NCBI GenBank assembly: GCA_947470025.1
Contig: CANIRU010000003.1
Location: forward strand, 1-61,446
DNA from: Chloroflexota bacterium
Lineage (GTDB): Bacteria; Chloroflexota; Dehalococcoidia; UBA2979
Length of the DNA stretch: 61,446 bases
Direction: 5' to 3'
Part shown: piece by piece, positions 42,847 through 60,308 of the stretch
How the letters are laid out: each line of letters begins with the position of its first letter
How positions within the stretch are numbered: the stretch's first letter is position 1
Notes under the pieces: generated by a model
Told to the model about the DNA's origin: nothing
Seen by the model: only the letters and a program-made list of their open reading frames with translations
Databases searched by the model: none
Translations under genes and position numbers: made by a program

Positions 42847-43023
42847 GTTCCCCCCTGTCCCCGCGCCGCGCTCGCCGCGCGGCGGCTGCGATGGTACCCC
42901 GGTTGGGTATCTCCGCGTTGCTGGAGAGGGTTCTGAACGGAACAGTCTTGATTCCGCGCGCACGCGCAGCGGGAGAGAGGGCGGATGAGGTTCTTGAACT
43001 CCTGGATGCGACGCAGGGTGTCG

Positions 43024-43118
43024 AACTCCGCCGGAAGTGTGAGGGGCGCAGTTCCTCGCACCTGGTTCTCTGCTTCTGAACCCCTCCCGCGCCGGGAGAA
43101 GCAGGAGTGGGCCGCCCC
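43024..43118 (+). repeat. Composite REP element, degenerate right half (copy D)
   Basis: aactccgccggaagtgtgaggggcgcagttcctcgcacctggttctc...cccctcccgcgccgggag...gtgggccgcccc aligns with the 93-nt core of copies A and B. Confidence 0.85.
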
Positions 43119-56144: not shown

Positions 56145-56660
56145 GTGAGCATGGGTGGCCCCACCGACGAGGATCGCGCGAGCGTCTCGCCAGAGAACCT
56201 GGCGAAGATGGAGAAGTTCGTCGCCAACTTCGCGGAGAAGTCCGGCTCCTTCCTGCACCCCCAGCGCGAAATCACCGACTTCCTGGTCATCGGCCTCGCG
56301 AAGAACATCGAGGAAGTCGGCCGTCCGCTCTGCCCGTGCATGTTCTTCGAGGACAAGCAGGCAGAGGTCGAGAAGAAGTTCTGGATCTGTCCGTGCGAGG
56401 AGATGCAGCGGTGGAAGTACTGCCACTGACTGCTTTTCACCGATGCGGAAGGTCTTCCCATCACCGAATACCTGCCAGAGGACCACGAAGGCCGCGAGGC
56501 CTACGGAGATCGTCCTGACCCCGACCCCTCGAAGGGCCGTGCCCTGACGCGCCTCGAGGAGAAGCAGGGCCGCTCCGTAAACAAGGGCATCCGCGCCGAT
56601 GGCGCCGCGGGCTCCGGTAACGACGACCCTCCGCAGATCATCCCCCTCGGCGGCGGCTAG
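56145..56660 (+). CDS. ftrC: Ferredoxin-thioredoxin reductase catalytic subunit-like protein, predicted selenoprotein (Sec95 encoded by TGA 56427-56429), 171 aa
   Basis: Motifs LCPC, ICPC and YCH-TGA match the FTR CPC/CPC/CHC signature. The frame continues LLFTDAEGLPITEYLPEDHEGRE... to TAG at 56658-56660. GTG start follows AGGAG. Confidence 0.85.
56430..56462 (+). promoter_or_regulatory. Bacterial SECIS-like element
   Basis: Hairpin GAUG-(C)-GGAAG-GU-CUUCC-CAUC at 56442-56462, starting 12 nt after the UGA, with a 5' bulge and a GGUC apex. Confidence 0.75.
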
Positions 56661-56734: not shown

Positions 56735-57086
56735 GGGGCGGCCCATCCCCCTGCCCCCTTCCCTGTGCGGGAAGGGGGATGAATGGCGAGGACTCCGCCC
56801 TCGCGCTCCCACCGAAACGAGCATGCTTCGCGCCTCGGTTCCCCCGATCGCACAGCCTCACCCTGCCCTCTCCCCCTCGAAGGGGCGCGGTTTTGATGAG
56901 AGCGCCCAGCTCGCGATCGGAACTACCCCTCGGCAGCGACATCTCCATGCGGCGGTGCGAATCCCTCGCACCGACCCAACGCAGCCACATCGAGTTCCGC
57001 CGGGAGTGTGAGGGGCGCAGCTCCTCACACTTGGTTCTCTTCTTCTGACCCCTCCCGCGCCGGGAGGGGTAGGGGTGGGCCGCCCC
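56735..57086 (+). repeat. Composite inverted-REP element, copy B
   Basis: Left unit ggggcggcccatccccctgcccccttccc-tgtgc-gggaagggggatga, an internal cctcaccctgccctctcccc unit, and the 93-nt core at 56993-57085. Confidence 0.9.
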
Positions 57087-57172
57087 ACACGCCACCTCGA
57101 CAGGGCTCGCGGCGCGGACGGCGCTCCCGCTCCTGCGAGGCAATCCTCGACCTCCGGCCGCGTGGACAAGCA

Positions 57173-57200
57173 GAAGGGGCGGCCTTGCGGCCGCCCCTTC
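57173..57200 (-). terminator. trxA terminator
   Basis: gaaggggcggcc-ttgc-ggccgccccttc, 12-bp stem with GCAA loop on the minus strand. Confidence 0.75.
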
Positions 57201-57223
57201 GTGTGCTGCAGTCTCGGACGAGA

Positions 57224-57556
57224 CTAGGCGGTCGCGAGCGCCGACTCGAGGTGCTTCGCCAGGTCGCTCTTCGGGCGGAAGCCCACGACCTGACCGACCT
57301 GCTGCCCACCCTTGAAGATGAGGAGCGTCGGGATCGAGCGGATGCCGTACTTGCCGGAGACCGCCGGGTTCTCGTCCGTGTTCAGCTTCACGAACTTCAC
57401 GCGGCCGTCGTAGTCGTTCGAGAGCTCCTCGACGACCGGGGCGACCATGCGGCACGGGCCGCACCACGGCGCCCAGAAGTCCACGAGGACCGGGGTGTCG
57501 CTGTTCAGGACGTCCGCTTCAAACGTCGCGTCCGAGGTGTCCGTAGGGTGAGCCAT
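57224..57556 (-). CDS. trxA: Thioredoxin
   Basis: [19 protein letters not shown] and IRSIPTL motifs; 110 aa. Confidence 0.97.
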
Positions 57557-57704
57557 GGTGGGTGGTCCTTCCTCTCCTGCGACATCGCCCGCCGCGACGC
57601 GCTTGCTGTGTAGTCGGGTCGCCGCCGGCCCCAGCCCATCCGAGGATGGCGGTTCGTCGACGGGATGCGGGTCGTCCAGCGCCGTGGAGCGTATCATCCG
57701 CTCG

Positions 57705-57761
57705 TTGACATCGGTTCTGTCCGACGAGTAACATCCTATATACCCCTACCGGGTATGTCAA
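57705..57761. promoter_or_regulatory. Overlapping divergent sigma70-type promoters with a CsoR-type operator
   Basis: Plus strand: TTGACA(57705-10)-18-TAACAT(57729-34). Minus strand: TTGACA(57761-56)-17-TAGGAT(57738-33). Palindrome ATACCC-CTACC-GGGTAT at 57740-57756. Confidence 0.75.
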
Positions 57762-57813
57762 GCCGGTCCGCCGCCCTCTCGATGGAGTGCTTGAGCCGGA
57801 GACGAGGTGCCAC

Positions 57814-58149
57814 ATGGCAGACGCCAACGACCAGCTCATCGCCCGCCTCCGCCGCATCGAGGGCCAGGTGCGTGGCATCGCCAAGATGCTCGACGACGAG
57901 CGTTCCTGTGAGGACGTGGTGACGCAGCTGATGGCAGTGCGCTCCAGCATCGACACCGTCGGCGCGGTCGTCCTCGACAGCCACCTCGCCGGGTGCGTGT
58001 CCGAACGCAGCGCGGAGCAGCAGATCGAGGCGCTCCGGGACGCGATGCGACTCTGGTGGCGCTTCGCCCCCGCGGCGGGCGGCGTCGGCGCGGATCCTGA
58101 CACCGTTGGCGCCCAGTCCCCGCTGCCGATGCCCGGCGCGACCCGCTAG
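57814..58149 (+). CDS. csoR: CsoR/RcnR-family metal-sensitive transcriptional repressor
   Basis: RLRRIEGQVRGI..M....C.DV..QL.AV, then H-L-x-x-C: the Cys/His/Cys ligand set of CsoR. Confidence 0.85.
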   Translation: MADANDQLIARLRRIEGQVRGIAKMLDDERSCEDVVTQLMAVRSSIDTVGAVVLDSHLAGCVSERSAEQQIEALRDAMRLWWRFAPAAGGVGADPDTVGAQSPLPMPGATR

Positions 58150-58155
58150 GGCGCG

Positions 58156-59181
58156 CTAACTTGAGGGCTGCTCTGCGCGGGGCGAGCCCGATGTGCCGTC
58201 CGGCCCGATCGCCGAGGTGAGCGCGGCCATCATTCCCTGATCGACCGCGTGCTGCGCGGAGCGCACCGCGCTCGCCACCGCCGCCTCGTCGCTGCGGCCG
58301 TGGCCCACGAACACCGCACCATTCACGCCCAGCAGCGGCACGGCGCCGTACCGGCGGTAGTCCAGGCGCGCGCGCACGACGCGGAGCGACGGCAGCAGCA
58401 GCGCCCCACCGATCTTCGAGCGCCACGAGGAACGCGCCGCCGTGCGCATCTGGTCGAACAAGAGCTGCACGAGGCCCTCGGCGAGCTTGAGGACGACGTT
58501 GCCGGTGAAGCCGTCGGTGACGATCACCTCGGCGTGGCCGGAGAGGATGTCGCGCGACTCGACGTTGCCGACGAAGCGCAGCGCCTTGTCCTCCGCGAGC
58601 GTCTGGTGCGCCTCGACGACGAGCATCGAGCCCTTCGTCGGCTCCTCGCCGATCGAGAGGATCGCCACGCGCGGCTCCGCGATGCCGTGCACCGCGCGCA
58701 TGTACGCCGCGCCGAGGTGCGCGAACTGCACGAGGTGTGACGGGCGCGCATCGGCGTTCGCGCCGACATCGAGCAGCATCACCGGGCCGTTCTCACCGGG
58801 GAGCACCGCACTGAGCGCGGGACGCTCGACGCCGTGCAGCCGTCCGAGGACGACCAGGCCGCTCGCCATCGCCGCGCCGGTGTTGCCGATCGTGACGAAG
58901 GCGTCCGCCTCGCCGCGCTTCACCATCTCCGTGCCGACGTACATCGATGTCTGTCGCGCGTGACGGATCGTCTGCGCCGCGTGGTCGCCCATCTCGACGA
59001 CATCGGGGGCGTGGCGGATGTGCAGGTTGGAGGGGTTCGCGCCGCGGCGCATCAGCTCCGCGCGCATCGTCGCCTCGTCGCCGACCAGCGTGACCTCGAT
59101 GCCCTCACCGGCAGCGATCAGCGCGCCGCCCACGGTCTCGCGGGGGCCGAGGTCACCACCCATCGCGTCGAGGGCGATCAT
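58156..59181 (-). CDS. plsX: Phosphate acyltransferase PlsX
   Basis: IALDAMGGD, GNTGA, RPAL, DVGAN, IGEEPTKG, DGFTGNVVLK and LLGVNG...HG motifs. Confidence 0.95.
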   Translation of the reverse strand: MIALDAMGGDLGPRETVGGALIAAGEGIEVTLVGDEATMRAELMRRGANPSNLHIRHAPDVVEMGDHAAQTIRHARQTSMYVGTEMVKRGEADAFVTIGNTGAAMASGLVVLGRLHGVERPALSAVLPGENGPVMLLDVGANADARPSHLVQFAHLGAAYMRAVHGIAEPRVAILSIGEEPTKGSMLVVEAHQTLAEDKALRFVGNVESRDILSGHAEVIVTDGFTGNVVLKLAEGLVQLLFDQMRTAARSSWRSKIGGALLLPSLRVVRARLDYRRYGAVPLLGVNGAVFVGHGRSDEAAVASAVRSAQHAVDQGMMAALTSAIGPDGTSGSPRAEQPSS

Positions 59182-60002: not shown

Positions 60003-60107
60003 GGCCGCCATGCTAGCCGACCCGCCGACGGGCGGCGAGGCGGACGAGCCGTCGGCGAGCGGATGGGGGCGTGGGTCTCATGTTTGAGAGTGGCGTCGAT
60101 CTGGCAG

Positions 60108-60308
60108 CGCGGGAGGGGTTCAGAAGGAAGAGAACCAACTGTGAGGAGCCGCGCCCCTCATGCTCTCGGCGGAATCGTGCGTTTCTAGAATGCGATATCC
60201 GAGCGTGGGCGAAGCCGCACGATCCGGACCGAGAGCCCGACGGGCACAGCCCCTCGGATCTCATCCCCCTTCCCGCGCAGGGAAGGGGGCAGGGGGATGG
60301 GCCGCCCC
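60108..60308 (-). repeat. Composite REP element, copy C (reverse orientation, one end truncated)
   Basis: The reverse complement of 60261-60308 matches the copy B left unit at all but one base; 60108-60175 is a diverged core. Confidence 0.88.

Follow-up and report, generated by a model that had tools for sequence, protein, structure and literature searches.

Between a thioredoxin gene and a divergently oriented CsoR-family gene lies a perfect inverted repeat, and the locus raises the question of which protein occupies this repeat, which genes are switched from it, and which signal releases them. The window, i.e., the whole stretch of 61,446 nucleotides that was analysed, belongs to an assembly of 2.17 Mb with 69% G+C and 80% completeness, and the genomes considered here are MAGs. 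As the earlier note had claimed, the repeat is flanked by trxA (57224..57556, minus strand), encoding a 110-aa protein with WCGPC that matches PF00085 (E 2e-34) and scores above the cut-off of TIGR01068, and by a CsoR-family gene (57814..58149, plus strand), encoding a 111-aa protein that matches PF02583 (E 4e-26; 91.6 bits, where the family cut-off is 22.8, over residues 5-78). The latter is one of two CsoR-family genes in the assembly, and its neighbours in the window are trxA, plsX, and a methyltransferase gene. trxA encodes the only canonical thioredoxin found in this 80% complete assembly.

The trxA start at 57556 is supported by the Shine-Dalgarno sequence GGAAGGA (57566..57572, minus strand), which is conserved in the form G[GA]AAGGA ahead of the ATG in 30 out of 30 relatives. 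An alternative TrxA frame of 157 aa, starting at 57697, was rejected, since its extra N-terminal part is unconserved and it is the ATG at 57556 that has the conserved Shine-Dalgarno sequence ahead of it. The trxA leader measures approximately 170 nt here and 92 to 252 nt among relatives, and is unalignable except for the Shine-Dalgarno sequence. An Rfam search of the leader matched no family, and with both observations a structured RNA or an upstream ORF in the leader was discarded. Past trxA, a possible terminator hairpin, GGGGCGGCC-GCAA-GGCCGCCCC with a T-rich tail next to it (57176..57197, minus strand), was read by eye; confidence in this hairpin is low, because the terminator scan gave no call there. 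A repeated intergenic element, containing GTGTGAGGGGCGCAG..CTCACAC and CCCCTCCCGCGCCGGGAGGGGTAGGGG, is situated at 57004-57075, with further copies at 43040-43100 and 60013-60120 of the window and at approximately 23160-23470 of contig C5.

Convergent with trxA, a gene encoding the catalytic subunit of a ferredoxin:thioredoxin reductase is located at 56145-56429 of the window. Synteny with trxA is kept in at least 14 of 29 loci of relatives, a count that is limited by flank length. No NADPH-thioredoxin reductase of the 80% complete assembly reaches the family cut-off, the best match scoring 50.6 against 343 bits. Together, these observations suggest a ferredoxin-driven thioredoxin system.

The repeat, ATACCC-CTACC-GGGTAT (ATACCCCTACCGGGTAT; 57740..57756, without strand assignment), is a 17-bp dyad of the type-2 CsoR form TAC-N9-GTA and is located within a pair of back-to-back promoters. 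A promoter scan of 56800-58400 returned exactly these two promoters, compared to a mean of 0.0 in shuffled sequences. The leftward promoter, facing trxA, consists of a -35 box TTGACA (57756..57761, minus strand), which has 1 bp in common with the operator, and a -10 box TAGGAT (57733..57738, minus strand), of which TAnnAT is kept in orthologs; its spacer of 17 nt (57739-57755) is the span of the dyad moved by one base. The rightward promoter, facing the CsoR-family gene, consists of a -35 box TTGACA (57705..57710, plus strand) and a -10 box TAACAT (57729..57734, plus strand) with a spacer of 18 nt, and the -10 boxes of both promoters overlap by 2 bp. The first base of the dyad lies 6 nt past the rightward -10 box; thus, with the start placed from the usual distance between -10 and +1, the repressor gene transcript would begin on the left arm of the operator and the dyad would span roughly its positions +1 to +16. 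Both the dyad in the 17-nt spacer of a leftward TTGACA/TAGGAT promoter and a rightward TTGACA-18-TAACAT promoter upstream of it had been proposed in the earlier note. Its coordinates are exact, with the shift of one base between dyad and spacer, and the promoter scan concurs for both promoters.

The assignment as a CsoR-type operator, likewise made before, is supported as well, since the dyad is the core of the published type-2 CsoR consensus. In Streptomyces this consensus is ATATACCCCTNAGGGGTATAT, in which conservation is concentrated at positions 3-8 and 14-19, forming the core ATACCC-N5-GGGTAT, and binding depends on the TAC-N9-GTA repeat (PMC3902906). In line with CsoR/RcnR operators, the dyad is a pseudo-palindrome of G/C tracts with TAC/GTA flanks, located inside both promoters and conserved. 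An ATACCC-N5-GGGTAT motif was found in the vicinity of 50 of 80 diverse CsoR-family genes that were fetched. The perfect dyad occurs in a single copy in the whole 2.17-Mb assembly, where arithmetic from 69% G+C gives approximately 0.05 expected copies, and 6 out of 10 related genomes likewise have a single perfect dyad each, located in the trxA-csoR spacer (0 for the reversed-pattern control). When up to two mismatches were allowed, the window yielded 2 matches against 0.39 expected. A one-mismatch dyad, GTACCCCGGTTGGGTAT, is situated at 42894-42910 of the window, approximately 50 nt upstream of a minus-strand short-chain dehydrogenase gene, where no clear promoter was seen.

The divergent pair of CsoR-family gene and trxA with a perfect ATACCC-N5-GGGTAT in between was observed in 30 of 30 loci of the same family, comprising approximately 20 genera, and the same arrangement with a perfect dyad recurs in four further families of the Dehalococcoidia and in three named Chloroflexota MAGs. 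In a dyad-anchored alignment of 36 distinct orthologous regions of the Dehalococcoidia, each of the 12 arm positions carries 2.0 bits and the three central positions carry 0.1-0.2 bits. GTCAA, belonging to the trxA -35 box, directly follows the dyad in 35 of these regions (1.8-2.0 bits), the TAnnAT pattern of the -10 box is kept at positions -7, -6, -3, and -2 relative to the dyad, and TTGAC precedes the dyad by 32-35 nt in all regions except approximately two; the remaining positions around dyad and promoter are near zero bits. Invariant arms with a free centre are what is expected where a dimer or tetramer binds DNA within a promoter of fixed layout. The claim that a single operator gates both promoters agrees with this geometry and with the invariant arms in all 36 regions, and is considered very probable.

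Five genomes of the family (G014, G015, G033, G034, and G022; 1.2-1.9 Mb, low G+C) lack the paralog and retain trxA at 70-84% identity. Within 300 nt upstream of trxA in these five genomes, the best dyad-like site has at least five mismatches, and their genome-wide dyad matches are at the level of the control. CsoR-family genes are absent altogether in four of the five, and G022 has a weak match of the canonical type. Thus, trxA persists there in the absence of the dyad, which indicates that operator and paralog are gained and lost together. The trxA upstream regions of all five genomes are AT-rich. A Ktedonobacterales MAG and a second MAG have trxA and csoR joined in one operon behind the same dyad, an arrangement which is an independent sign of a probable functional coupling.

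Extra perfect dyads in four relatives led to a second target, a gene encoding a 75-aa protein with two CxxC motifs, which contains four invariant Cys and three conserved His and matches no Pfam family. In the genome under study it is located outside of the window at C65:5985-6209, beside a convergent bcp peroxiredoxin gene, and is preceded by two degenerate sites, ATACCCCCTAGTGGTAT and ATACCGTACCGGGGTAC, 22 nt apart (C65:5925-5963). CsoR-type sites occur at this gene in all 22 loci of the family that have it, mostly in tandem and with the first one overlapping the -10 box. A genome scan for further operators, as proposed in the earlier note, also returned one-mismatch sites in the genome under study. 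One of them (C8:14566-14582) lies 24 nt before a cysteine desulfurase gene (C8:14606) that is divergent from a gene for a SufR-like HTH regulator. The desulfurase was rejected as a regulon member, with the site present in only 4 of 30 orthologous loci, all of one genus, and this site is at best lineage-specific; a perfect site precedes a paralogous cysteine desulfurase gene in one other genus. A further one-mismatch dyad is situated at C16:23295-23311, upstream of an Rrf2-family regulator gene. Given the site in 22 of 22 loci of the 75-aa gene and the restriction of the desulfurase site to one genus, the conserved regulon consists of trxA, the regulator, and the small Cys4 protein. Neither metal exporters nor aldehyde dehydrogenases are among the conserved targets, and no sulfurtransferase or sulfide-detoxification genes were found among these targets or the neighbours of the paralog.

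What the comparative data show is the dyad itself, how well it is conserved, that it goes together with the repressor, and the second target; that the repressor binds, in which direction it regulates, where transcription starts, and what the inducer is, we infer. In the circuit that we propose, the 111-aa paralog (57814-58149) would bind the single dyad at 57740-57756, and since this dyad is located inside both back-to-back promoters, one bound repressor would shut both of them. A single binding event would thus combine repression of the sole thioredoxin with negative autoregulation, and the paralog would also repress the 75-aa gene via its mostly tandem promoter sites. Repression of both trxA and the repressor's own gene is very probable. 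An autoregulated CsoR-family repressor of trxA had been put forward in the earlier note and is favoured by the comparative data, in which dyad, trxA, and paralog stay together, dyad and paralog are lost together, and operons of trxA and csoR occur elsewhere. Tight repression of the only thioredoxin seems risky, and a basal promoter may exist inside the 170-nt trxA leader.

The absence of a copper exporter in the vicinity, as noticed before, extends to the whole window, which contains no HMA-domain or copper-ATPase genes; the only ones of the assembly are situated on contig C5. There, a copZ-like/csoR/copA operon is located at C5:23539-26950, with the second CsoR-family gene (C5:25953-26219), encoding an 88-aa protein, between the copZ-like gene and the gene for the P-type ATPase CopA. 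The copZ-like protein, with 207 aa, combines an HMA domain with a Cys/His-rich C-terminal half. This canonical paralog is located beside copA in 15 out of 15 relatives, of which 13 have a match to the copZ-like gene, and a conserved dyad of 21 bp with TAC-N13-GTA spacing, ATACCCCCCGGGT(A/G)GGGGTAT, is present upstream of copZ-csoR-copA. Beside the trxA-linked paralog, no HMA or copA gene was found in any of the 30 related loci. Copper efflux would accordingly be left to the second paralog and its 21-bp dyad. Arm spacing is 9 bp at the trxA dyad and 13 bp at the copZ dyad, a difference of 4 bp, and due to the separate paralog and the different spacing the copper and trxA circuits are presumably insulated from each other.

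As to the signal, for which the earlier note had considered both Cu(I) and persulfide, three residues of the trxA-linked proteins, C32, H57, and C61, are invariant (12 proteins aligned, 39 inspected), and the sensing site would be formed, between subunits of a tetramer, by C32 together with H57 and C61 of the adjoining subunit. Cu(I)-sensing CsoRs are described as x-C-H-C proteins (SSN clusters 1, 17, and 23) and CstRs as x-C-x-C proteins (clusters 3, 4, and 10), and genuine Cu(I) sensors almost always have a Tyr in front of the first Cys (Tyr35 in MtCsoR), a residue coupled energetically to allostery (PMC8643695). This Tyr occurs in none of the 39 trxA-linked proteins, which have S, T, A, P, V, N, E, or D instead (Ser in the protein of the window), compared to 71 of 71 other C-H-C proteins sampled, including copA-linked and mycobacterial RicR-like proteins; the canonical paralog has it too. 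In SpCstR, the counterparts of C32 and C61 are C30 and C59, and that of H57 is N55.

In a FastTree phylogeny of 138 proteins of approximately 90 aa, rooted at the midpoint and with a support of 0.25 at one key node, the 37 members from the Dehalococcoidia form a monophyletic group (support 0.86). A clade of 45 tips (support 0.90) takes in all trxA-linked proteins together with CstR-like x-C-N-C proteins, e.g., of Enterococcus, and other x-C-x-C proteins, and no Y-C-H-C protein is found in this clade. Against solved structures, the profile of the trxA-linked proteins scores 73.6 bits for InrS, 68 for CstR, and 66 for Geobacillus CsoR, whereas the canonical paralog scores 63 bits for Geobacillus CsoR, 62 for S. 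lividans CsoR, and 31 for pneumococcal CstR. Judged by its sequence, the trxA-linked paralog groups with putative CstR-like thiol sensors and away from the copper CsoRs.

The inducer that we prefer, with somewhat less than even confidence, is thiol-reactive stress. Disulfide, peroxide, or persulfide stress would crosslink or modify C32 and C61', the modified repressor would leave the DNA, and the induced thioredoxin would in turn reduce the repressor, closing a feedback loop; with no apparent NADPH-thioredoxin reductase, thioredoxin presumably takes its electrons from the adjoining ferredoxin:thioredoxin reductase. We lean towards this inducer because of the missing Tyr, the clade shared with CstR-like proteins to the exclusion of Y-C-H-C proteins, the closest solved relatives, which are InrS and pneumococcal CstR rather than the Geobacillus and S. 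lividans CsoRs that match the canonical paralog best, and the targets, which are thiol-redox or Cys-rich and include no exporters. Against it stands H57, which as a presumed Cu(I) ligand is invariant in all trxA-linked proteins and is lost in the known persulfide sensors. A D/E at position 76, in the motif LR[DE][AS]M, may also argue against it, as its counterpart in the copper sensors is the second-shell Glu (Glu81 of MtCsoR; in RELM of Geobacillus CsoR), with an alpha2-alpha3 loop of varying length. Furthermore, the correlation with the Tyr may go back to a single evolutionary event.

These same residues lend weight to copper as the signal, which we regard as possible, if a less probable inducer than thiol stress. 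With the architecture unchanged, the paralog would be a second Cu(I) sensor, as RicR is beside CsoR, and Cu(I) bound by C32, H57, and C61' would release it from the DNA; copper stress would induce thioredoxin and a Cys/His-rich buffer or repair protein, and efflux would be left to the canonical CsoR. In addition to the invariant x-C-H-C triad and the aligned D/E, for which the loop length varies, the operator has the type-2 copper-CsoR consensus and the 75-aa target contains four invariant Cys and three conserved His. A precedent is given by RicR, with non-exporter targets including a metallothionein and a site between divergent genes (PMC3944814). The RicR model NF052430 is indeed the best NCBIfam match of the paralog, but its score of 70.9 bits is far below the cut-off of 175. 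The Tyr linked to allostery, kept even by the RicR-like proteins of mycobacteria, is missing in all 39 trxA-linked proteins, their clade is located with CstR-like proteins and not with the copper CsoRs, and the cell already has a dedicated copper CsoR. Membership of the paralog in the RicR, CstR, or InrS group was rejected, as one defining feature fails for each of them.

Improbable, but with some features in its favour, is a different inducer acting on the same architecture. It could be another metal along the lines of InrS and RcnR (Ni, Co, or Zn), an aldehyde or electrophile of the kind sensed by FrmR, or a partner protein that acts via the C-terminal tail. The top score of the clade profile is that of the nickel sensor InrS (73.6 bits), and several orthologs share with InrS a Pro in front of the Cys. 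The tail of the paralog contains LWWRFAP, of which W81, W82, R83, and F84 are invariant in the Dehalococcoidia and have no counterpart in the characterised members aligned. On the other hand, the N-termini vary in length and sequence, with no invariant residue before A10 and neither a conserved His nor a conserved Pro at the W position, where Ni/Co sensors of the InrS/RcnR type (H-C-H-C, H-C-H-H) have a conserved N-terminal His, and a metal exporter or aldehyde dehydrogenase is missing from the conserved set. Although the arms ATACCCC and GGGGTAT are common to both dyads, it is very improbable that the binder of the trxA dyad is the canonical CsoR from the copZA locus, or that the dyad is a mere promoter spacer to which no protein binds, and that the neighbouring paralog is irrelevant to trxA, because the canonical CsoR's own dyad is spaced differently by 4 bp (TAC-N13-GTA against TAC-N9-GTA), the dyad is lost with the paralog in five genomes, of which G022 retains a weak canonical-type match, and a conserved palindrome whose centre is free to vary is not what a promoter spacer normally looks like.

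Returning to thiol stress as the preferred signal, it is tempting to speculate, more tentatively than for the inducer as such, that the trxA-linked proteins represent a distinct CsoR clade, marked by x-C-H-C in combination with the loss of the second-shell Tyr and, in the Dehalococcoidia, by the LWWRFAP tail, which would serve as a thiol-stress master switch of the Dehalococcoidia and other Chloroflexota, repress the sole thioredoxin and the small Cys4 protein, and be reset by thioredoxin. The fold, the type of operator, and the principle of repression from within a promoter spacer are already known; new are the set of targets, an operator spacing that differs between the paralogs, and the C-H-C signature in the absence of the Tyr. 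A full-text literature search returned no report on control of thioredoxin or trxA by the CsoR family. Known inducers of the family are Cu, Ni/Co, formaldehyde, and persulfide (PMC8643695); a 2024 review names the same inducers and no others, and the part of it that was consulted does not mention thioredoxin. If the proposed signal is true, general thiol-redox stress joins these inducers of the fold.

A whole bacterial class appears to keep its only thioredoxin under a CsoR-type repressor, with a classical copper CsoR in the same cell. Due to the arm spacings of 9 bp and 13 bp, both repressors form a natural paralog pair suited to the study of operator insulation. Moreover, C-H-C lacking the Tyr is a clean signature for probing inducer specificity beyond the first shell, which has been named as an open question by the field (PMC8643695), and the locus offers a first handle on the regulation of redox stress in the uncultured Dehalococcoidia.

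Among the known systems, CsoR of S. lividans, controlling csoR, copZA1, and copZA2 (PMC3902906), shares the ATACCC-N5-GGGTAT core, autoregulation, and the first-shell Cys-His-Cys. Its targets are copper chaperone/ATPase operons and not, as here, trxA and a small CxxC protein, and compared to it the trxA-linked protein has lost the Tyr before the Cys and gained the LWWRFAP tail; the S. lividans structure scores 43-52 bits with the trxA-linked paralog against 62 bits with the canonical one. RicR of M. tuberculosis is likewise a second, autoregulated CsoR paralog with a palindrome of the same type and a dispersed regulon with no adjoining exporter, and one site was proposed to serve the two divergent genes mmcO and lpqS (PMC3944814). 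In contrast to the trxA-linked proteins, the RicR-like proteins of mycobacteria retain Tyr-Cys, and the RicR targets comprise a metallothionein, a multicopper oxidase, and membrane proteins but no thioredoxin (PMC3944814).

The CstRs (S. aureus, E. faecalis, and S. pneumoniae 7MQ1) have the Cys pair at the positions of C32 and C61 and share the clade in the tree, SpCstR being the closest or second-closest solved relative of the trxA-linked paralog. They react with RSS and simple oxidants (PMC8643695). Unlike the trxA-linked proteins with their invariant His, CstRs lack this residue (x-C-x-C, with Asn as a wedge), and the genes for sulfurtransferases and for enzymes of sulfide detoxification that make up their operons are missing from the targets here. 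InrS, the cyanobacterial Ni sensor (5FMN), resembles the trxA-linked proteins in the C-H-C core, in the Pro before the Cys of some orthologs, and in its top profile score, but it is an H-C-H-C protein with an N-terminal His ligand that controls a nickel exporter, whereas no N-terminal ligand is conserved here. Thioredoxin-inducing circuits of thiol stress are represented by sigmaR-RsrA in Streptomyces, Spx in Bacillus, and OxyR in E. coli, i.e., by an anti-sigma factor, an RNAP-binding protein, and a LysR-type activator, whose folds and mechanisms are unrelated to CsoR. The logic proposed here would be the same, with a thiol switch acting on trxA and thioredoxin resetting the switch, and a repressor of the CsoR fold would take the place of these regulators.
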